This document shows, one piece after another, positions 1,341 through 41,900 of a stretch of DNA of 41,900 nt. The DNA comes from a virus. Lineage: Duplodnaviria > Caudoviricetes. The stretch is taken from IMG/VR virus record IMGVR_UViG_3300037461_000072, positions 1-41,900 of that record. One strand, written 5' to 3'. Under the pieces are notes generated by a model. The model was not told the DNA's origin, searched no databases, and saw only the letters and a program-made list of their open reading frames with translations. The number at the start of each line of letters is the position of its first letter. The first letter of the stretch is position 1. The translations under genes were made by a program, and so were the position numbers.

Positions 1341-1901
1341 CTAATACCCAAAAAGCTCGAAATCTTTAATAAAGTACTCAGAAACTATATTTTTTACTTC
1401 AGGAGTGTAATATAAATCGTAATTAGCAAACTTACCTTTATTCACATGAGGTAATTCTGTATGTTTTATTCCCAACTTATCGCACACTACATCGAAATCA
1501 TTTTGGAGGTTCTCAAATCTACCTATAAAATCTACAACCAGCTTTCCTTCTACAGAGATGAATTTATTTTGTTCTCTCAGAACCACCTGTTTATTAAAGT
1601 CCGACTGTTCCGTTACAAATTTATATATCTTCTGCTTTATTATGTTTCTGGGCAATTCTTTATTTATTACATGGTTTAGAACACCGGACATGAATCTATC
1701 GTAGGGATTTCTGACAAACGCAAACTTAAAATAATTATCTAGGATATCAGTCTGAGTAAGTTTAAGCATGGAGTTATAGAAAGACATATCCGCATGTTTG
1801 TTATATGCATCAGTAAACGGCTTAACTTCTTCTATGCTAGATCCGGCTGTCTTTGGTATATGAATATATATAAATCTGTATCGACTATTACACTGACTCA
1901 T
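1341..1901 (-). CDS. Sulfotransferase family 2 protein
   Basis: PAPS-binding motifs FIYIHIPKTAGSSI (5'-PSB) and FAFVRNPYDRFMS (3'-PB), plus DFIGRFENL and DFELFGY. Confidence 0.88.
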   Translation of the reverse strand: MSQCNSRYRFIYIHIPKTAGSSIEEVKPFTDAYNKHADMSFYNSMLKLTQTDILDNYFKFAFVRNPYDRFMSGVLNHVINKELPRNIIKQKIYKFVTEQSDFNKQVVLREQNKFISVEGKLVVDFIGRFENLQNDFDVVCDKLGIKHTELPHVNKGKFANYDLYYTPEVKNIVSEYFIKDFELFGY

Positions 1902-3332: not shown

Positions 3333-3472
3333 TATTTATTCTCCTTATTAACCGAGCCATCAGCGTGAGCCATCACTCTACCTTTTTGTAAATCTTGTAT
3401 CTGCTTCAGAAGTTCATCTATCTGTGCCATAGGATCGCCAAACATTTTGTTAAGATATTTTTGTTTTCTCAT
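3332..3472 (-). CDS. Hypothetical protein (46 aa)
   Basis: MRKQKYLNKMFGDPMAQ...; its TAA overlaps the next ATG. Confidence 0.55.
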   Translation of the reverse strand: MRKQKYLNKMFGDPMAQIDELLKQIQDLQKGRVMAHADGSVNKENK

Positions 3473-3479
3473 CTCCAGC

Positions 3480-3493
3480 CCTTATCTACCCAA
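3480..3493. repeat. 14-bp direct repeat CCTTATCTACCCAA, copy 1
   Basis: Identical to 3987-4000. Confidence 0.9.
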
Positions 3494-3494
3494 C

Positions 3495-3644
3495 TTAGTA
3501 CGACCCCGACCTCGACCACGACCACGACCTCGACCTCGACCTCGACCACGACCCCGACCTCGACCTCGACCTCGACCACGACCCCGACCCCAACCACGAC
3601 CACGACCCCGACCATAAGGTGTTTACATTAGCGAGTTGAATCAT
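3495..3644 (-). CDS. Low-complexity (W/R/G-Ser)n repeat peptide, 49 aa
   Basis: ATG overlaps the upstream TGA (ATGA). Reads MIQLANVNTLWSGSWSWLGSGSWSRSRSRSGSWSRSRSRSWSWSRSGSY. Confidence 0.7.
   Translation of the reverse strand: MIQLANVNTLWSGSWSWLGSGSWSRSRSRSGSWSRSRSRSWSWSRSGSY
3501..3614. repeat. Hexamer tandem repeat (CGACCH)x19
   Basis: Counted directly; one unit is CAACCA. Confidence 0.97.
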
Positions 3645-3976
3645 TTTTGGGTCTTAGGAAGATCGTGTTTCCACGGGAAAATATCTACTATCGACTGAAC
3701 ATTAAGCCAAGCAGTTCCCACAGGCTCAACCTCGTCAAGAGTCCCGTCTTTAATAGCACCCATAAATCTACCTGAGTCCGCTACCCAAGAAGCGTCTTTT
3801 AATTCAAAGAATTGCCCGACTAACTTAGTTACTTTCCCGACCATGTGGTAAGTCACAGTTCTTATAAATAACTTCTGACCTACAAAATCAGCTAAACTAT
3901 CTACATCTATCGTATCCTCACCTAATTGAGATTTTATTCTCTCGTAGGTTTCATCTGAAATTTGTATTTCCCTCAT
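3641..3976 (-). CDS. Small beta-barrel (Sm/SH3-like, DUF6948-like) protein
   Basis: VGQKLFIRTVTYHMVGKV...LKDASWVADSGRF resembles phage DUF6948-type proteins (by recollection). AAGGAG SD. Confidence 0.6.
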   Translation of the reverse strand: MREIQISDETYERIKSQLGEDTIDVDSLADFVGQKLFIRTVTYHMVGKVTKLVGQFFELKDASWVADSGRFMGAIKDGTLDEVEPVGTAWLNVQSIVDIFPWKHDLPKTQK

Positions 3977-3986
3977 TATCTATACT

Positions 3987-4000
3987 CCTTATCTACCCAA
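3987..4000. repeat. 14-bp direct repeat CCTTATCTACCCAA, copy 2
   Basis: Identical to 3480-3493; includes part of the SD of the gene starting at 3976. Confidence 0.9.
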
Positions 4001-6427: not shown

Positions 6428-6667
6428 TTATAATACTACCCAGTCCTCTCCGTTCATGTCACCATCACTTAATATCCAGTTATAATCTTTTCCATCAGGC
6501 TTGTGTAAGGTAAGAACCCCGTTCAAAAGATGCCCATAATATTCCCTATCTTCCCACTCAACCTTATGTACTTTCTTTCCTTCCATGACCTTTCCAAGTG
6601 CTTCAAAAAACTTGTACATCTGTTCTGCTTTTACTTTATTCTTTAATACCGGAGACTTTGTAGCCAT
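6428..6667 (-). CDS. DUF2829 / Thoeris anti-defence Tad2-like protein
   Basis: F.EAL....GKKV....W...W..S..DM..EDW family signature. Confidence 0.75.
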   Translation of the reverse strand: MATKSPVLKNKVKAEQMYKFFEALGKVMEGKKVHKVEWEDREYYGHLLNGVLTLHKPDGKDYNWILSDGDMNGEDWVVL

Positions 6668-11526: not shown

Positions 11527-12480
11527 CTACTTGCCCTTTATCGCTATAATTAACAGGTTCAACGCTTCCCCTACCGTGTACTTCTTAGCCTTTAGACGCT
11601 TAATTTCGCCCTCTAGGGCTGTTTTAGATAGAGTTAGGGTATCTACACTATTTTGAGCTATTTCTAAGTCCCTGCGGTCTTGTAGCGCCTGTTCCCTTAG
11701 TTTGATATTGTCCTGATTTCTTTCTTCTGCAAGGTCTTGCAGTTTCTTATAGTCTTCTTGGGCTTGATCTATCAGGGTTTGTCTATTTTCAGCTTTTATC
11801 TTCCAACCCTCTCCCCAAGTAGTCATTTTAGCAAGTTCGTCTCTTAATCTGACAATCTCTTCTTGTAACGGATCAGTAAGTTTAGAAAATCCATACTTAT
11901 AGAACTGTGTAATCTCACCATAGAATACGTTTCCGTCTACTCTACCATTTATTCCTTTTACCTGTTCCTGATTCGAGTACTGTCTGAACGCTACCACTTC
12001 CCACGGGGTTTTCGGAGAATCGTTTATCGTGTAATCCCAGTAAGCCAACCAAAGCCCGTACCCCTTATCTACAACAGGTTTCCAGTCATAAGTCTGTGTA
12101 ATATGTCTGTTTAGGTAGACTAATGGTTTATATCCCCCATAATTAGCTGAAAGTTTATCCAAAAACTTCAAACTCCAGCCAACAGGATCGGGGTACGATT
12201 CCTCAAAATCTAGGAATAATATTTCCCCCTTCTCAATAATCCCCACTACGTGTGAAAACCAATCTGCTTCCGCTTCGGGTGAATTATAGGTCGGGTACGC
12301 ATAGTGATAGAATCCTCTCGGAATCTTTAACCTTCGTAATTCCTTACAGTTGTAAACAAAACACTCGTCTATATATCCGTTTCCATAAGAGGATCGGATA
12401 ATCACAAAATCAGTATTCTCTTTTAGAATATCGAAATTAACCGCACCTTGCCACTTACTAATATCTACACCTTTGAGCAT
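11527..12480 (-). CDS. Endolysin: GH25 muramidase with coiled-coil C-terminus
   Basis: GVDISKWQG, GFYHY, LDFE, LWLAYW, QYS and VDGN motifs. Confidence 0.93.
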   Translation of the reverse strand: MLKGVDISKWQGAVNFDILKENTDFVIIRSSYGNGYIDECFVYNCKELRRLKIPRGFYHYAYPTYNSPEAEADWFSHVVGIIEKGEILFLDFEESYPDPVGWSLKFLDKLSANYGGYKPLVYLNRHITQTYDWKPVVDKGYGLWLAYWDYTINDSPKTPWEVVAFRQYSNQEQVKGINGRVDGNVFYGEITQFYKYGFSKLTDPLQEEIVRLRDELAKMTTWGEGWKIKAENRQTLIDQAQEDYKKLQDLAEERNQDNIKLREQALQDRRDLEIAQNSVDTLTLSKTALEGEIKRLKAKKYTVGEALNLLIIAIKGK

Positions 12481-25132: not shown

Positions 25133-27829
25133 TCAAATCCAATGACTCTGTTTAGTCCAAGTACTAGAAGTCTTATCCTCTTTAGTCCAAGTGCTAGAGG
25201 TCTTATCCTCTTTAGTCCAAGAAGCCGGAGATGGGCTTGGCGATAGAGAAGCACTGATAGAAGGTGACAACGAAGCTGATGCAGACTTTGAAATAGAAGC
25301 CGATAAAGAAGAAGACGGAGATTGCGAAGACGATATAGAAGCAGATAAAGAAGCGGAGATACTCCTACTAATAGAAGGTGACAACGAAGCCGAGGGAGAC
25401 TTAGATATCGAAGCCGATATAGATTTAGATACAGATGGGGACATGGAACTTGACGGTGAAACAGAAGACGATGGGGATTGCGAAGACGATGGGCTGGGTA
25501 TCTCGTCAAAAGGATAGTAAGCCACGAGTCCTGCTTCAGATCCGGTTAGCTCCCTGTCGTAATTATCAGCTATCTCCTGAGCGGTTCTGATATCGTTCCA
25601 TACACGGACTTCGTCTATTACACCATCAAAATAATCGGATATAACTCCTGCTGTTGTACCTCTAGCACCGACTAAAAAGGCTTTAGCATTATTTTTGATA
25701 GACGTAGCGTCACTAGCAACCGTAGTAGTAGATGCAGCCGAGCCGTTTATATAAAAAGTAGCAGAGGGAACGCTTATATCTACAGTCACCGCCAAGTGTA
25801 CCCACGCACCAACATCGTAGCTGTCTAAAAATGTATCGCAATCAAAAGTAGTAGTGTTTCCGCTACTGTCGTAAAAATTTAATCTAATTTCATCGTTTGC
25901 TTGTATGATAAACTCGTAAGACCTGTCCGGAACGTTGATCTCTGATTTTGCTACTATGGAGAACTGATCCCCAACAGTGCTTGGAAGTTGCTCCAATTTA
26001 ATCCACGCCTCTATCGTGAAATCCGTCTGAAGATCCAATCCGGTCTGATTAGCGTCTGTAATACTCAAATACTGTGAGCTAGAAAGCTCAAGATTCGCAG
26101 CTACAGTACTTCCAACGAAAGGAGCATCGGAAATGTAAGTCATGACCCCGTTATTGTTAGTTAGGTCGTTGTGGTTAGATGTTCTATCATAAATATCCGC
26201 TAATACTGATGGGGAAGGGCTGGGGGATACAGAAGATGACGGGGATTGTGAAGACGAAACCGAAGCTGACTCAGATTTAGACCCAGATTTTGAGACAGAT
26301 CCGGAAACACTAGCAGATTCGGATTTAGATTCCGAAGCCGAGGGAGACTGAGAAGATGAAATAGATGCGGAAGGTGATTTAGAAACAGAAGCCGATAATG
26401 ATTTTGATTCGGAGGCTGACAAAGAACCTGAAGGAGATTTAGAAGGTGATGCCGACTCAGATTGAGATTCCGATAATGATGGGGATTTAGAAATGGATGC
26501 AGAAAGCGAACCGGATACAGATTTAGAAATAGAAGCAGAAGGTGATTTTGATTCACTAGCCGATGCCGACTTCGACACACTAGCCGACAAGGACTTAGAC
26601 TTGGAAGATGACGGGGATTGTGAAGACGAAACCGAAGCTGACTCAGATTTAGATTTCGAGCTAGATGGAGATTGGGTACTAGACACACTAGCCGATCTAG
26701 TAGGAGATACAGAACTACTAGCTACAGCCGGTAAAGTTACAGTGAATACCTGAGTGAAACCATCCCCGTCTGCACCGTACCAAAAGTTTATATAATGCGC
26801 ATCATCTATCTTTGTGGCAAAGTTGGTCACACTAACAGCAGTTTCAAACTCAAACATAGCGGCTGAGGTACTGATCGCATAAGTCGAGGTATTAACCTCG
26901 AACACTTGGGCTTGAGAGTGATGATCTGTACCTTGCCAAAACACTACGAAGTGGTTGCTGTCTACAGTATTAGCTGACGGATTTAGACCTTGGGTATCAA
27001 ACTTAAAAGCGGCACTAGTGGTAGTTACCGCCCATGTGGTTGTATTAACTGCAAAAGTATGAGCATACCCCACGTTAGAACCATCGGCTTTCCAGTTTAT
27101 AAAGTGGTTAGCGTCTATCTGACAAGCATCTGGGTACTGTGAATTACTATAGTAAGAAAACTTAGCACCTGCGGTAGTTACAGCCCAAGTAGTAGTATTA
27201 ACCTCCAAAACCTGCGCAGAACCATAATTAGGATTAGCACCAGCAGAAGCCCAAAACACTATAAAGTGATTAGTGTCTATCTTAAAAGGTCTTGGGTGGT
27301 AGGAATCCGTAGTATCAAACTCTAACGCTGTTCCTTCTTTAGTTATTGCCCATGTAGAAGTGTTGACTGTAAAGATTTGAGTGTAACCGTCACTTCCACT
27401 CCCCCACCAAGTCGCCAAAAAATGATTATCGTCTACCTGTACCATATGGGGGGTAGTACCCTCATTACTATCTAATACGTTGTTAGCCTGAGTTGTAGTA
27501 ACAGCCCAAGTGGAAGTATTGACGGCAAACACCTGACCCATTAAGTCATTGGCGTTACCGTACCATAATAAAAAGACATGGTTAGCGTCAACCTTCAAAC
27601 AGTGTTTATAGTCACCATAAACAGTATCAAATTCTAACACCGAACCGGCTGTAGTAACCGCCCAAGTTGAAGTGTTTACTGTAAAGACCTGAGCAAACCC
27701 ATCAGAGTCTACGCCCTCCCAGAAGTTAATGACGTGGTTATCGTCTATCATACAAGACGTAGGTTTCCACCCAAACTGTGTATCGTATTCTAACCTAGCG
27801 TTAGCTGTTGAAACATCCCAATTAGCCAT
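25133..27829 (-). CDS. Virion fibre/adhesin: 7-repeat beta-propeller + Ser/Pro-rich tract + LamG/ConA-like domain + Ser/Pro-rich tract
   Basis: Seven (I/V)DxxH...VNTSTWAVTT repeats; LamG motifs DFTIEAWIK, WVHLAVT and FDGVIDEVRVWN; two SxSxS tracts. Confidence 0.85.
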   Translation of the reverse strand: MANWDVSTANARLEYDTQFGWKPTSCMIDDNHVINFWEGVDSDGFAQVFTVNTSTWAVTTAGSVLEFDTVYGDYKHCLKVDANHVFLLWYGNANDLMGQVFAVNTSTWAVTTTQANNVLDSNEGTTPHMVQVDDNHFLATWWGSGSDGYTQIFTVNTSTWAITKEGTALEFDTTDSYHPRPFKIDTNHFIVFWASAGANPNYGSAQVLEVNTTTWAVTTAGAKFSYYSNSQYPDACQIDANHFINWKADGSNVGYAHTFAVNTTTWAVTTTSAAFKFDTQGLNPSANTVDSNHFVVFWQGTDHHSQAQVFEVNTSTYAISTSAAMFEFETAVSVTNFATKIDDAHYINFWYGADGDGFTQVFTVTLPAVASSSVSPTRSASVSSTQSPSSSKSKSESASVSSSQSPSSSKSKSLSASVSKSASASESKSPSASISKSVSGSLSASISKSPSLSESQSESASPSKSPSGSLSASESKSLSASVSKSPSASISSSQSPSASESKSESASVSGSVSKSGSKSESASVSSSQSPSSSVSPSPSPSVLADIYDRTSNHNDLTNNNGVMTYISDAPFVGSTVAANLELSSSQYLSITDANQTGLDLQTDFTIEAWIKLEQLPSTVGDQFSIVAKSEINVPDRSYEFIIQANDEIRLNFYDSSGNTTTFDCDTFLDSYDVGAWVHLAVTVDISVPSATFYINGSAASTTTVASDATSIKNNAKAFLVGARGTTAGVISDYFDGVIDEVRVWNDIRTAQEIADNYDRELTGSEAGLVAYYPFDEIPSPSSSQSPSSSVSPSSSMSPSVSKSISASISKSPSASLSPSISRSISASLSASISSSQSPSSSLSASISKSASASLSPSISASLSPSPSPASWTKEDKTSSTWTKEDKTSSTWTKQSHWI

Positions 27830-28511
27830 TACCGTTTCCCCATTTAATCATATTAAAATTAGTTATATGCATCGGTCTTATCCTATCATCTAACCATATC
27901 TCAAATCCCTCTTTAGTTGCTCTTTCACTAAACTCACAATCCTCGGACATTGTTCTACGATCATAGGATTTGCCATCTACAATAACGTTCTTATCAAACT
28001 TAATATCTCCAAATGCGAACACTTCCCCATCATATTTTTTCAGCAAGGTTTCTAAGACGTTTCTCTTAACGAGAAGGCAACCTGTACCAGTAGCATCAAC
28101 TCTATGCAAATTACCGCCATCTCTAAATGTATCTATATTGAAGTAAAGTTTTAACGGACTACCATTAGCTTCTATCTCTCGTGAGTAGAAAGCACACATC
28201 TTGTAATTACCATTCCCATCGGGGTTTCTTCCAAGTATCGGAGCTGTAACTATATCCTTATCATCTTCTACCATCTTCTCAAGTGTGTCGGGTGGTATCG
28301 GGTTATCGTCATCAACCATAAAGAGATAATCAAAGTTTTTAGATACTGCTTCGATTGCTAAAGCGTTTCTAGCCTTATCTATACGCTGTCTTTCTACAGT
28401 CATGAAGGCACAAGGGCAAGGCTTATGCAGTTGCAATAAACTTTGCACCATTACAGCCGGTATATAACCACTATATGTCGGCATACCAATAAGTATAGAC
28501 TGTGGATTCAT
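27822..28511 (-). CDS. Glycosyltransferase (GT-A/GT2-like)
   Basis: IDKARN, YLFMVDDD, ATGTGCLLV and SEDCEF motifs. Confidence 0.85.
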   Translation of the reverse strand: MNPQSILIGMPTYSGYIPAVMVQSLLQLHKPCPCAFMTVERQRIDKARNALAIEAVSKNFDYLFMVDDDNPIPPDTLEKMVEDDKDIVTAPILGRNPDGNGNYKMCAFYSREIEANGSPLKLYFNIDTFRDGGNLHRVDATGTGCLLVKRNVLETLLKKYDGEVFAFGDIKFDKNVIVDGKSYDRRTMSEDCEFSERATKEGFEIWLDDRIRPMHITNFNMIKWGNGNG

Positions 28512-28512
28512 G

Positions 28513-28761
28513 CTACAAATCCGTGTTCAAATTATTTTGTATAGTACTATTTACAGATTCGGCTTTATTTACTTTCGCTAGATAAAGTAGAATCTTATCT
28601 CTTACTTCAACTAAAGTACCGTTAGTGAGTTCTTCTATGTAGATTCTATAAGGTTTGGTAAATTCTTTTCCCGTGTCATAAAACCTTAAAACTAGATCTA
28701 TATAGTCGGTGTCTTTAGCAAAGTTTAAGGTAGAACTTTGTACTTGTACTTTCCACGCCAT
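28513..28761 (-). CDS. Hypothetical protein
   Basis: GAAAGGA SD; lies within the GT cluster. Confidence 0.6.
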   Translation of the reverse strand: MAWKVQVQSSTLNFAKDTDYIDLVLRFYDTGKEFTKPYRIYIEELTNGTLVEVRDKILLYLAKVNKAESVNSTIQNNLNTDL

Positions 28762-28794
28762 AATAATCCTTTCAATAAATTAACTTAATACTAA

Positions 28795-29736
28795 TTATAC
28801 CCCATCAGACCATTCTGGTACTGGGGAAAACTTATCTATCAACCATTGAAAATCATGTTTCGCACCCTTCCATTTGTTATTTACAAACAAATCTATGGAT
28901 AATTCCCTATTAGCCTCTATCTTCTTAGGAGACTGCGTATAAGGAAACCCAAAATCCCCACCTTGAGTCCTGAATAGGTGTGCGTACCAAGTATTCTTAT
29001 TTACTACCACTCTTCCACCGGATAACCATGTCTTACAAGCCACCTCTACCCCCTGTTGTCCCCATGAATGAAAGTCCTCACTACAAATATCAAGTTCCCA
29101 GTACTTTTTCCTAGTCAACATGAAGCACGAACCCTGAATAGACAGCGTATCAACCAAATCCCCCTCTTGTCTCCTTTTGTAACCTCCCCAGTACTGAAAT
29201 TTCATGTTCTTATCGAACCTAAAAGCCGAATTAGTAGGTCTCTTCTTGGGTATCCACACTATCTCTCTCTCAAACTCAGTAGAATCACATGACTCGTTCT
29301 TAACTTTTCCCTTCCCGTCACTGCAACAATGTTGAGGAGTGGGACTTTGATACCATTTATTGCCACATTTCTTACAAATCCAGTTGAAAGCATGGAGGTT
29401 TCTCATTACGGGAATCATAGTCCAATCATCTTGCATATCCCTCATCATTTTCACATCAAAACCTTTATCAAAAGCGCAATGTGCATCAACTTTCATCACA
29501 TATTTAGCTTTAGATAGCCTACAAGCCTCGTTAGTAGCCGCCCTTTGACCTATACTCTTCGGATGATAGATGACCGTTACTCTTTCGTGCTGTTCTACCG
29601 GAGGATCTACCCATTCCCCATCTAATACTACGATGATTTCAGTATTCCCTCTAATATGCGTTAGGATATCTTTAACAGTTCTAGATAGAAACTCCTCATT
29701 CCTAGCCGGAATCAGTATCGATAGATCATAACCCAT
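28795..29736 (-). CDS. Glycosyltransferase (GT-A, ppGalNAc-T-like motifs) with Cys-rich insert
   Basis: SILIPARNE..LSRTV, KVDAHC and WGQQGVEVACKTWLSGG...AHLFR. Confidence 0.88.
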   Translation of the reverse strand: MGYDLSILIPARNEEFLSRTVKDILTHIRGNTEIIVVLDGEWVDPPVEQHERVTVIYHPKSIGQRAATNEACRLSKAKYVMKVDAHCAFDKGFDVKMMRDMQDDWTMIPVMRNLHAFNWICKKCGNKWYQSPTPQHCCSDGKGKVKNESCDSTEFEREIVWIPKKRPTNSAFRFDKNMKFQYWGGYKRRQEGDLVDTLSIQGSCFMLTRKKYWELDICSEDFHSWGQQGVEVACKTWLSGGRVVVNKNTWYAHLFRTQGGDFGFPYTQSPKKIEANRELSIDLFVNNKWKGAKHDFQWLIDKFSPVPEWSDGV

Positions 29737-31828
29737 CTATAAACTCCTTGAAGTTTCCTTCCAGTTGTCCCCAATATGGTACAGATCCGGACTCAGTCCA
29801 CCCAACCCTTCCCCTTTCACTTCTGAATTGTTTTTTATCCATTCTCTTTTTAGTCCAAGCGTCTTTTCTTCTGATATCCAGTGAGGGAAAATCGGCAAAA
29901 TATGTCAATCTCTTACCTTTTCTTTTATTCCTCGGCAATCCTTTTGGTGGGGAATAGCCGTATCTGCTTCTCCAGCCTTCCTTTTCTACCATCGCCACGC
30001 ATCTAGAGTAGTGGTCTATCAAAGTACTCTTTAATCCGCACATCATCGAGGGTACATCGGTATAATAAAACACCGCTTTCCCCGTCTCGTCACATACTGA
30101 CCACCTGTTGTAGTCGTAATAAAATATCCCCTCTTCTGTTGGCATAAACTTAAAATGGGATGGATGATACACAATATCGTGTTCGCATAAGTAAACCACA
30201 TCGGCATCTACCTCTTCCAATCCTTTTAGCACCTGTTTATATAGTGACAGAACGGATCTTTCCAAATCCAGCACTATGTTTCTTCCGAAGTTCTCCACGG
30301 GCTTTTGAGATACGCATACAATGTCTTCTATACCATTCTCCTTAGCACATTTTACTATCTGCTGTCTGCACTTCTCCAGTAGTACCGGATCTCCGTGATT
30401 ATCGGTGTACTGCACAATACCTACCTTATGCTTTCCCATGTTAAAGCTAGGTACATTCTCATTCACCCAAAACCAAGAAGAGTACTGATCCCCGTCTACA
30501 TAGTTAGGTATATTCTTATAAAAGTCCGTAACAAAGAATGGGATCTTGTGTATTCTCGCATAATCATCAACTGCAGCAGTGACTTTAGCTATCTGAGACT
30601 GTCTCCTGTTCTCTGTGAAATAATCGTGTCCTGAGATAATACCCCCAACCTTAACTTTTCTTAGCCAAAATATAATGTCCAACATCACAAAATCGTAGCT
30701 ATGATCCCCGTCTATATACACAAAGTCTAACGATCTGTCCGGTATGTCTTTATAGGCGTTTTCGCTATAATCAAACACATATTGCACTACTCTATTGTCT
30801 TTTAGCCTCTCAACCGTCTGTCTTTTGTACTTCTCGTGGTATTTATCCCAACTCCTGTATCCGAATGGATGATCTTTATACGGGTCTACTAAGAACAGTT
30901 GAAGATCGGGAATGGTATCGAACATCATTTTAGCGTTTCTACCTCTCTGAACCCCGACCTCACACCCCACTTTATACCCAAGTTCAGCGAACAACTTATA
31001 CATCCCTATTCTACCTACTCCGTCTAGCAAGGTAGGATTCTTACTACCGTCTTTCCCAAACTTATTCAATATAAACTCTGTTTTACTCACGCTGGGTTTG
31101 TCCTCCAACATCTTAACTAAGTACTTTCTAGATTTGTCTACCTCTCTTTTATCTAGGACAAATCCCCTATCATCCTTATGCCAGTGTGCATACCAAGTGT
31201 TCTTGTCCCTGATAATCTTCCCACCATCCCCTTTAACCTTGAAGTAAATCTCCTGAGCTTCGTGTCCTGACCCACCAAAGTTCTCATCGTCTTCTAAATT
31301 CAACTTTTCAAAATAAGATTTTCTAATAAAGAAACATGACCCCTGAAATGCGCTAATTTCCACTATCTTTTCGGAATCGAGACTAACATCATTGTTCAGC
31401 TTTTCGTCAATTCTACCCCTGTTTTCAGAGTCTAAGACCATGTAGTTTACATCTCTTCTACCATCGGAGATTATTTCCCACTTATCCGGATCTAATCTTT
31501 TTCTAGTTGGGACTATCACCCAATTATCTTTCATATCCGCTAGGAGTTTGTAATCAAAACCGTCATCAAACATACAATGAGCGTCACACTTGAGTATGTA
31601 ATCTCCTCTCGCTATCGTTACACCGGATCGTATTCCGTTTCTCATGCCCATTGCAGTACCTCTATGCAAGTAATGTACCCTGTCATCCTCTACTATATCC
31701 TCCGGCTCTTCCCAGTATCCGTCTAGAACAGCAATGACCTCAATTTCGGTCTTAGCCTTACTTAATATATCTTTGATTGTTTTGGATAAAAAAGGTTCGC
31801 TTCGTGAAGGTATAACTACACTAATCAT
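29726..31828 (-). CDS. Three-domain protein: GT-A + class I SAM methyltransferase + second GT-like domain
   Basis: KCDAHC; CEVGVQRG and LDFVYIDGDHSY...GGIISGHDY; VYLCEHDIVY. Confidence 0.88.
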   Translation of the reverse strand: MISVVIPSRSEPFLSKTIKDILSKAKTEIEVIAVLDGYWEEPEDIVEDDRVHYLHRGTAMGMRNGIRSGVTIARGDYILKCDAHCMFDDGFDYKLLADMKDNWVIVPTRKRLDPDKWEIISDGRRDVNYMVLDSENRGRIDEKLNNDVSLDSEKIVEISAFQGSCFFIRKSYFEKLNLEDDENFGGSGHEAQEIYFKVKGDGGKIIRDKNTWYAHWHKDDRGFVLDKREVDKSRKYLVKMLEDKPSVSKTEFILNKFGKDGSKNPTLLDGVGRIGMYKLFAELGYKVGCEVGVQRGRNAKMMFDTIPDLQLFLVDPYKDHPFGYRSWDKYHEKYKRQTVERLKDNRVVQYVFDYSENAYKDIPDRSLDFVYIDGDHSYDFVMLDIIFWLRKVKVGGIISGHDYFTENRRQSQIAKVTAAVDDYARIHKIPFFVTDFYKNIPNYVDGDQYSSWFWVNENVPSFNMGKHKVGIVQYTDNHGDPVLLEKCRQQIVKCAKENGIEDIVCVSQKPVENFGRNIVLDLERSVLSLYKQVLKGLEEVDADVVYLCEHDIVYHPSHFKFMPTEEGIFYYDYNRWSVCDETGKAVFYYTDVPSMMCGLKSTLIDHYSRCVAMVEKEGWRSRYGYSPPKGLPRNKRKGKRLTYFADFPSLDIRRKDAWTKKRMDKKQFRSERGRVGWTESGSVPYWGQLEGNFKEFIDGL

Positions 31829-40894: not shown

Positions 40895-41131
40895 TTATAT
40901 TATAGACTGTTCGTTTATAACTTCCAATGCTATAGTCACGCTGTCTGCTTTTCTATCCTTAGTCAACTCACTACTTATGGTCTCTGTTCTAACTATCTTA
41001 CGATTTACAAGATGAGTAGTTACAGATCCGTACCTAACATCCCTAATCTTTTGAATAAGTAACGCCTCATCTTTAGTTAGTAGTACCTTATATGTATCTT
41101 CCGGAGCATAGGGTTTGTAGCCATCGCTCAT
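40895..41131 (-). CDS. DUF2292/YezD-like small protein
   Basis: IRDVRYGSVTTH..N.KIVR.E pattern. Confidence 0.5.
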   Translation of the reverse strand: MSDGYKPYAPEDTYKVLLTKDEALLIQKIRDVRYGSVTTHLVNRKIVRTETISSELTKDRKADSVTIALEVINEQSII

Positions 41132-41900
41132 AATATTCCCCCATCCATACTATTGAAATCAGATGCGGACTTTCTGTAAGGGTCTTCGCTAATCTTTACA
41201 TGAGTCGCTTGTGGCAAGGATATTAACTCTCTATACCCTACAGCGAAAGTTCTAAACGCATCCGCTCCATGTGATGACCAGTCGTGTTCCGGTCTATTCT
41301 TGAACACCTGATTATCTTCATCCCATTCTTTGTGATAGCTTCGTAGTGCGGATAAACCCTTCTCGCATTTGTCTTTATCAAACCAACAACGACTTAAGAC
41401 ATTCCTAACTGCCTGTACCCCATCTTCTATGGCGAGGGCTTTACCCACCTCGAACACTATTCCCAAGCTCTTAGCAACCTCTAACCTACTCTTGCCAGTT
41501 CCAAGCTCTCTAACTGCAATATCATGTGGTGCGAAATGCCTACCGTACACATAATTCTTATCTCTTAGGTATTTGATGTAGTAGTTTATCCCTTCACCAC
41601 TGGATTCGTAATAATCTATAAAATGTATCTCTTGTCCGGCTACTTGAAAGCACCAAATAGTCGTTGAATCATCCATCCCAAGATCCCATGCGGTATGTAC
41701 TAATGCATTGGAGTCATAAGGAACACCGGATATCCTACCTTCTTTATCAGCGAGTAGAAGTTGATTAGCGTAATAAGATCCCTGAATAGGCACATCAAAG
41801 TTACACATATACTCTTGTTGATACAGTGCATCGTTCCCATCTTTCCTAAATATTTCGTCATACTCTTGGTTTAGAACTTCCGGAGAGATAGCCTTAGTCT
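41128..41900 (-). CDS. terL: Terminase large subunit, C-terminal nuclease half
   Basis: RNase H-like terminase motifs AWDLGMDDST, PHD and HDWSSHGADAFR. In frame with 1-740 after circularisation. Confidence 0.95.
   Translation of the reverse strand, partial: TKAISPEVLNQEYDEIFRKDGNDALYQQEYMCNFDVPIQGSYYANQLLLADKEGRISGVPYDSNALVHTAWDLGMDDSTTIWCFQVAGQEIHFIDYYESSGEGINYYIKYLRDKNYVYGRHFAPHDIAVRELGTGKSRLEVAKSLGIVFEVGKALAIEDGVQAVRNVLSRCWFDKDKCEKGLSALRSYHKEWDEDNQVFKNRPEHDWSSHGADAFRTFAVGYRELISLPQATHVKISEDPYRKSASDFNSMDGGIL
41735..41900. repeat. Terminal overlap, right copy
   Basis: 166-bp match to positions 1-166 with 2 mismatches. Confidence 0.97.

Follow-up and report, generated by a model that had tools for sequence, protein, structure and literature searches.

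Phages carry a real, widespread and apparently undescribed two-gene architecture, in which a small barrel protein with a predicted Sm/LSm fold is encoded beside a separate peptide made of a short leader and a long run of Ser alternating with Trp, Arg or Gly. No description of a barrel plus Ser-X peptide module was found in the literature searched. The window, the stretch of DNA analysed here, corresponds to an entire 41.9-kb virus record. It includes capsid, portal, endolysin and Erf-like genes, and its gene order alone suggests a circularly permuted complete genome. The record ends are apparently cut in the terminase large subunit region (1-700 and 41128-41808). The cassette lies within a run of small minus-strand genes, between an Erf/HNH region and a DNA methyltransferase gene, and comprises the following parts:

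3641..3976, minus strand: gene for the 111-aa barrel protein of clade I with a predicted Sm/LSm fold, net charge -5
3990-3985, minus strand: Shine-Dalgarno-like AAGGAG of the barrel gene, from the sequence
3495..3644, minus strand: gene for the 49-aa peptide, which begins in an ATGA overlap with the barrel stop; net charge +7, frame kept in relatives
3615..3644, minus strand: 10-residue leader with an N-x-N-T-L-(W/Y) motif common to many clade I peptides
3501..3614, minus strand: 19 NGG-TCG units encoding (Trp/Arg/Gly-Ser)19 with one Ser>Leu, from the sequence
3987..4000, minus strand: upstream copy of an exact 14-nt direct repeat, running into the ribosome-binding site of the barrel gene
3480..3493, minus strand: downstream copy of the same repeat, one base past the peptide stop and ahead of the next gene start
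3469..3615, minus strand: Val-rich frame that is open across the array, considered a by-product and not a gene

A first-pass annotation had read the frame from the ATGA overlap (3644-3495) as a 10-aa leader followed by 19 NGG-TCG units, and this frame is present as claimed. A unit-by-unit count agrees that only the first base varies, giving Trp, Arg or Gly, save for one Ser>Leu: the first codon is TGG in seven units, AGG in seven and GGG in five, and the second is TCG in all units except unit 4 (TTG, Leu). TRF reports the array (period 6, 18.8 copies) as the only one of its kind in the window, where no second copy was found, and the encoded peptide contains seven Trp among its 49 residues. An assembly artefact is unlikely, because contigs from two public DNA runs, one of which may be the source sample, match both array ends letter for letter; among the matching contigs listed, none covers the whole array. 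A strain variant in run X2 differs in the barrel gene by seven listed changes, each of which falls on a third codon position. RNA runs gave one 111-nt contig of depth 2, which was not taken as expression evidence, and a promoter and terminator scan returned nothing above chance.

Several other genes in the window were recorded. A sulfotransferase-family gene (1341-1901, minus strand) adjoins the DNA methyltransferase gene (2166-2867), and a 79-aa protein (6428-6667, minus strand), 2.5 kb from the cassette, has a Tad2-like match that falls below threshold (E 8e-5; 23.5 bits against a cut-off of 25). Within 25133-31828 (minus strand), an 898-aa protein that combines a LamG lectin domain with extended Ser-X-Ser-X tracts adjoins three GT2 glycosyltransferase genes, one of them fused to a methyltransferase; this is possibly a glycosylated serine-rich virion protein.

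The pairing of barrel and peptide was followed from both sides. With the barrel as the starting point, the peptide adjoins it in 74 of 80 viral loci, in 90 of 95 loci of a second set that has several contigs in common with the first, and in 66 of 80 metagenome loci, or 47 of the 48 with full flanks (16 of them repeat barrels); the three adjacency sets (80, 95 and 48 loci) overlap. The six misses in the first set comprise three loci that end within 90 nt, one with a Lys-rich version (L035), one with no peptide (L070) and one that is paired under a looser rule (L047). The peptide is found upstream or downstream of the barrel, in one to four or more copies that often outnumber the barrel, and in 124 of 156 downstream pairs it starts between -4 and +12 nt from the barrel stop. 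With the peptide as the starting point, 123 pattern matches included 57 with full flanks, and a barrel lies within 1.5 kb in 43 of these. Ten of the remaining 14 contigs were inspected: in three (G002, G004 and G007) a clear barrel is present at another place, accompanied by its own peptide with a near-identical leader, one (G009) has a weak barrel only, and no barrel was found in six that are 3-57% complete, for three of which the clade II profile was the only one used in the search. The single complete genome with such an orphan peptide has a barrel elsewhere. In the complete phage G011, which has a barrel, no peptide was detected, and this counts against obligate pairing.

No third recurring gene was found, the largest other cluster covering 10 loci against 168 for the barrel. 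Only eight of 123 immediate neighbours have a Pfam match, all of them different, and the wider neighbours of cassettes include recombination nucleases, Erf and methyltransferases. These results support the earlier proposal of a leader-plus-core peptide with a dedicated barrel partner, whose homologs keep both the downstream repeat and its reading frame. Two arrangements stand apart. T4-like phages (L197, L206, L217, L434; G002) have basic-leader Ser-X arrays beside a RecA/UvsX-like gene, about 26 kb from a barrel locus carrying three more peptide copies. In L261 (G009), two Ser-X repeat copies stand behind a 43-residue acidic, probably folded head, with the weak barrel 130 kb away.

Selection acts on the peptide. 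Read frame by frame, the DNA downstream of homologs keeps Ser-(Trp/Arg/Gly), which is not the behaviour of the neutral microsatellite that the first-pass annotation had considered as the outcome if homologs conserved no frame. Although the units in the first 13 loci are built on TCG, TCT, TCA or AGC, the Ser frame reads Ser-(Trp/Arg/Gly) behind a short leader in every one. Across 2,023 units in 86 arrays from 74 of 84 loci, the X residue is Arg in 754, Gly in 622 and Trp in 589, and the fixed residue is Ser in 1,954. All three X residues occur in 83 of the 86 arrays, in which the dominant Ser codon is TCG (30), TCT (24), AGC (15), TCA (14) or AGT (3). Within arrays, position 1 of the unit is polymorphic (non-majority 0.54), and homogenisation extends to all five remaining positions (0.02-0.04), including those that are synonymous. 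In 211 arrays with flanks, some of them fragments or mis-phased, a frame-blind scan found an open frame with an ATG and a nearby stop for the Ser frame in 107, for the Gly-X frame in 16 and for the Val/Glu frame in 6. Because A and C occur together at position 1 in only 8 of 230 arrays, it is three residues, and not four bases, that are kept. Unit order is near random and slightly over-mixed (1,366 like-neighbour pairs against 1,441+/-27), and differs even between copies within one genome. Ser-frame conservation, codon diversity and the position-1 pattern therefore show selection on a three-residue mix in the peptide.

The other minus-strand frames described earlier are present in the window. 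The 48-aa Val-rich ORF (3615-3469), which overlaps an ATG at 3472, is as described. The start-less Gly-Arg frame also exists, although its variation is not wholly synonymous as had been stated, since the Ser>Leu change gives one Gly-Trp there; among relatives, the residue in this Gly-X frame shifts between Arg, Leu, Ala, Gln and His. From the comparison of sequences, both the Gly-Arg and the Val-rich frames are judged to be by-products.

The barrel has 795 close homologs and 1,670 clusters at 50% identity. It had been described as a small beta-barrel protein, which holds and can be made more precise, since the predicted structure is Sm/LSm-like. An AlphaFold2 model of the 111-aa protein (pLDDT 90) has Sm topology, with the N-terminal helix and bent five-stranded barrel that characterise Sm, LSm and Hfq proteins (H28-31, E35-40, 44-53, 56-65, 83-92 and 96-101). 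The top structural matches are all Lsm, SmAP or Sm chains (PDB 6ppq, 1i8f, 1n9r and 1loj; Foldseek E 5e-5; VIA Z 9.1, rmsd 2.0 A over 65 residues; identity 11-21%). DUF6948 is the top viral structural match (Foldseek BFVD E 2e-4) and the nearest named Atlas cluster (0.82), and the two families have a weak profile match (hhalign probability 36, E 4e-4). No match to Pfam DUF6948 (PF22253) above the curated cut-off was found in the window protein or in 69 + 61 relatives. The barrel family is thus likely a distant sister of DUF6948 that lies outside that Pfam family, as judged from predicted structure and profile comparison. Searches of Pfam, PHROG, NCBIfam and PADLOC returned no match for barrel or peptide, a PDB sequence search with the barrel gave chance H-NOX matches only, and an Atlas search with the peptide gave no usable match. 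The MAG contigs on which relatives occur bear the labels Saccharibacteria, Falkowbacteria, Solirubrobacterales and Phycisphaerae, among others; mis-binning of phage contigs may account for some of them. In an annotated phage collection, the matches were to uncultured records only.

The RNA-binding motifs of canonical Sm proteins are Asp/Asn and Arg-Gly. In canonical rings, loops L3 and L5 carry RNA binding (as excerpted from PMC3877753). With loops mapped from the predicted strands, positions 53-55 and 93-95 of L3/L5 are variable in 121 relatives, position 92 being Asn in 64%, and conserved RNA-binding residues were not found in either loop. The near-invariant residues (R39, T42, G47, W64, G69, R70, G78, E82, E84, D98, W102, L106 and P107) lie outside L3/L5, in the beta1-beta2 loop, the beta3-beta4 insert and the C-tail. 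From this model-based mapping we infer that the canonical RNA pocket has probably been lost in the phage barrel. Sm, LSm and Hfq proteins assemble into hexa- or heptameric rings by way of beta4-beta5. In the phage family, natural tandem two-barrel fusions (P0129, P0149, P0167, P0198 and L266) are a hint of oligomerisation; a single-sequence fold of the P0129 tandem barrel reached pLDDT 32, too low to be informative.

The peptide-first search exposed a second clade of barrels, which aligns to clade I with hhalign probabilities of 96 and 49 in different alignments; a quick tree of 86 columns was used solely for the clade I/II split. Leaders with at least three Lys/Arg occur in 25 of 35 clade II peptides versus 8 of 146 in clade I, and leader-barrel covariation within clade I is low (Mantel rho only 0.15). 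A Gly-X pattern search found a further kind of partner, (Gly-Tyr/Ser/Asp/Asn)n ORFs, the pattern itself biasing the composition of the acidic peptides found. DUF6948 is carried by 47 of 65 Gly-X loci with room, all 19 tested barrels from Gly-X loci pass Pfam DUF6948, and a fourth barrel type was seen by eye in 16 of the other 18. Both kinds of peptide have aromatic, charged and small residues alternating with a fixed small residue, and they are of opposite charge. The net charge of the barrel core is opposite to that of the peptide in all four clades (-2.0, -1.2, +1.9 and +1.1), a weak sign given small differences and four clades only. Basic and acidic cassettes adjoin each other in L120, L123 and L188, and in L229, where the barrel is seen and the contig ends.

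Variant forms are rare. The fixed residue is Thr in three loci (L437, L439 and L440) and Ala in two (L459 and L477), and no barrel lies within 700 nt of 34 of 36 Ala/Pro-pattern and 2 of 5 Thr-pattern matches. In L459, the leader, the repeat and a diverged barrel (E 4e-6) share one 227-codon frame, and in L324 DUF6948 is fused to its own repeat; a search for longer forms gave eight matches, with a repeat fusion in none. Behind DUF6948 barrels in ten loci (L339, L343, L347, L348, L363, L369, L370, L375, L376 and L388), Gly-X repeats run into a conserved C-terminal domain. Trp/Arg/Gly-Ala and Trp/Leu/Ser-Gly repeats also occur inside larger proteins with no barrel nearby (L457:124-886 and L464:414-1284).

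The exact 14-nt direct repeat that brackets both genes (4000-3987 and 3493-3480) was absent from the first-pass annotation. A comparison of the 45 nt before the barrel with the 48 nt after the peptide showed an exact shared word of 11-29 nt in 16 of 88 barrel-to-peptide cassettes, different at each locus and often including the ribosome-binding site of the next gene. Control counts were 10 of 742 other gene pairs and 26 of 1,511 single genes. Three of the 16 cases are explained by an upstream peptide copy, and replicate sets are smaller (3 of 24 metagenome, 2 of 21 clade II, 1 of 16 clade IV and 0 of 31 DUF6948 cassettes). One locus (L036) has the series barrel remnant, peptide, barrel, peptide. 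A search with the upstream gene for an empty-site relative found none and gave one distant match. We read these patterns as probable frequent insertion with duplication, together with duplicate-and-delete cycles of the cassette. About 1.7% of unrelated small genes (L016-L190) are also flanked by exact direct repeats of 11-22 nt, and this may be a mark that gene insertion generally leaves in these phages.

In the favoured reading, offered tentatively, this conserved and mobile cassette of two genes may be a split "LSm adaptor plus low-complexity tail" that binds and clusters nucleic acid. The predicted Sm-fold barrel would act as a peptide-binding adaptor gripping the short leader of the co-translated peptide, and the basic tail would bind single-stranded nucleic acid by composition, without sequence preference, with Arg contacting phosphates, Trp contacting bases and Gly/Ser serving as spacers. 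Barrel rings, if formed, would make the complex multivalent and cluster nucleic acid. Expressed among early or middle genes, it could coat, protect or anneal phage nucleic acid, much like a split Edc3/LSm14 in which an LSm domain works with a low-complexity tail. Leader binding is suggested because leaders differ by barrel clade, because distant peptide copies in the same genome (G002, G004 and G007) have the leader of the barrel-adjacent copy, and because one repeat-barrel fusion exists. Designed short Trp/Arg/Gly peptides phase-separate in vitro via Arg-aromatic contacts (excerpt of PMC9879991), and RNP granules are described as driven by multivalent low-complexity regions (excerpt of PMC3877753). 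Against this adaptor reading, leader-barrel covariation can be plain co-descent, and the strict two-residue alternation is unneeded for condensates and fits a beta-strand better. Nor can one mechanism cover both cassettes, because the acidic sister peptide cannot bind nucleic acid in this manner. A bolder version, which we regard as rather unlikely, is that the Sm fold has turned from an RNA-binding ring into a holder of a "peptide strand", with one dipeptide per nucleotide-sized step; the basic Ser-(Trp/Arg/Gly) strand would coat single-stranded nucleic acid and the acidic Gly-(Tyr/Asp/Ser) strand would imitate it, the four clades with their own leader codes spreading as self-contained cassettes that are sometimes stacked acid-base.

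Other explanations were weighed against the adaptor reading. The complex could instead be a stoichiometric counter-defence decoy that titrates a host defence or RNA-binding protein while its reshuffled tail evades recognition; this is unlikely, and it can overlap with adaptor and clustering explanations. The cassette does have small unnamed early genes around it, with neighbours that change (115 of 123 have no Pfam match), the tandem copies, like the flanking repeats, suggest that it is often gained and changes in dosage, and the adjoining basic and acidic cassettes are in keeping with a decoy. However, none of the 123 immediate neighbours belongs to a named counter-defence family, the Sm/LSm fold is mentioned by none of the anti-defence papers listed, and one alphabet across very distant phages argues against fast target tracking. 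The charge and Trp content of the peptide also resemble those of Trp/Arg antimicrobial peptides and Arg dipeptide repeats, and it could act on membranes or ribosomes for host shut-off or exclusion, with the barrel chaperoning or neutralising it. Such a toxin-antidote pair would suit both the barrel alone in G011 and the barrel found elsewhere in the sole complete orphan-peptide genome. It is nevertheless distinctly unlikely, given an acidic Gly-(Tyr/Asp) sister with the same architecture, a position outside the lysis region (endolysin at 11527-12480) and peptide copies that frequently exceed barrel copies.

A templated beta-fibre would account for the fixed position being always small (Ser, rarely Thr or Ala, and Gly in the sister family): small residues would line one face and Trp/Arg the other, and the barrel would nucleate or cap a cross-beta or silk-like polymer. 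Monomeric Sm folds are described as having free beta4/beta5 edges (excerpt of PMC3877753), but a third of the X residues are Arg, which would repel one another, another third are Gly, and unit order is unconserved even within one genome, so that we consider a fibre improbable. The suggestion in the first-pass annotation that the peptide is a modification substrate is disfavoured. A RiPP-like precursor phosphorylated, glycosylated or dehydrated at Ser would have the leader and repetitive Ser core seen here, in several copies per genome with one leader, and the window phage encodes the three GT2 glycosyltransferases. No modifying enzyme recurs, however: the 123 immediate neighbours include one radical SAM protein and no kinase, YcaO or lanthipeptide enzyme. 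The Ala versions, moreover, have no hydroxyl. This explanation is highly improbable, although an enzyme could act in trans. Least credible, and largely refuted, is a neutral microsatellite or a DNA or RNA element (a G-quadruplex or a diversity-generating retroelement target) with an incidental peptide. The strongly NGG codon choice and the homogenisation of arrays by slippage or conversion would fit it, but TCN and AGY arrays encode the same peptide, the bases at position 1 are restricted as described above, and no RNA fold signal was found over the array (z +1.29). Diversity-generating retroelements confine variation to template adenines, but here the A of the Ser codons TCA, AGC and AGT does not change and position 1 does, and a diversity-generating retroelement was rejected on this ground.

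The adaptor reading can be set beside known systems. Arg-containing repeats are tied to RNA-handling proteins in the RS domains of SR proteins and the Arg-Gly tails of SmD1 and SmD3; unlike the phage peptide, these tails are part of larger proteins and do not have the Trp/Arg/Gly mix. In SR proteins, the RS repeats are attached to an RRM and are substrates of SR kinases; membership of this group was rejected for a 49-aa free peptide with no Pfam domain in which about a third of units are Arg-Ser. Canonical Sm, LSm, SmAP and Hfq rings are not known to have a peptide partner gene. Such rings (excerpt of PMC5379935) give the best structural matches to the predicted barrel, which differs in its variable L3/L5, in an extra helix in the beta3-beta4 insert and in a conserved W-x-H-x-L-P tail. 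The LSm domains of Edc3 and LSm14A (Scd6) are described as having lost rings and RNA binding and as binding short peptide motifs (HLM; excerpt of PMC3877753). As is proposed for the phage module, the LSm fold there is divergent and without canonical RNA binding, and low-complexity regions drive RNP granules, but those proteins are eukaryotic, the tail is in the same chain and the motif is a helical Leu motif. In the phage cassette the tail is on its own gene with strict two-residue alternation, and any peptide binding or granules are putative. Borg Sm proteins have repeat tails and have kept Sm1/Sm2 motifs, with K/E-type N-terminal repeats (excerpt of PMC9879509); they share low-complexity repeats tied to RNA-handling proteins, and not the Trp/Arg/Gly mix. 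The T4 proteins GoF, MotB.1 and Frd.2, too, are early phage proteins with a predicted LSm-like fold and an uncertain RNA role, although the abstract of PMC12152347 mentions no repeat-peptide partner. The same two-gene layout is seen in DUF6948 (PF22253) with its downstream (Gly-Tyr/Ser/Asp)n ORF, sometimes adjoining a Ser-X cassette, in which the partner differs in being acidic with a fixed Gly; no literature on this family was found.

No family entry thus exists for a large phage barrel family, whose peptide gene is mostly overlooked or assigned to a wrong frame: a 15-billion protein collection has none of the four peptides looked up, from the window and three relatives, and P0122 and P0247 are apparent wrong-frame repeats. 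The novelty lies in the two-gene architecture; if the best explanation is true, its chemistry would resemble that of eukaryotic LSm domains with disordered tails. The arrays amount to an experiment by nature in which composition is selected and sequence is not, and their letters, Trp, Arg and Gly, are those that chemists picked for minimal condensate peptides. As a two-component and easily synthesised system, the cassette would allow one to ask if a peptide can take the place of RNA as the molecule that an Sm fold serves.
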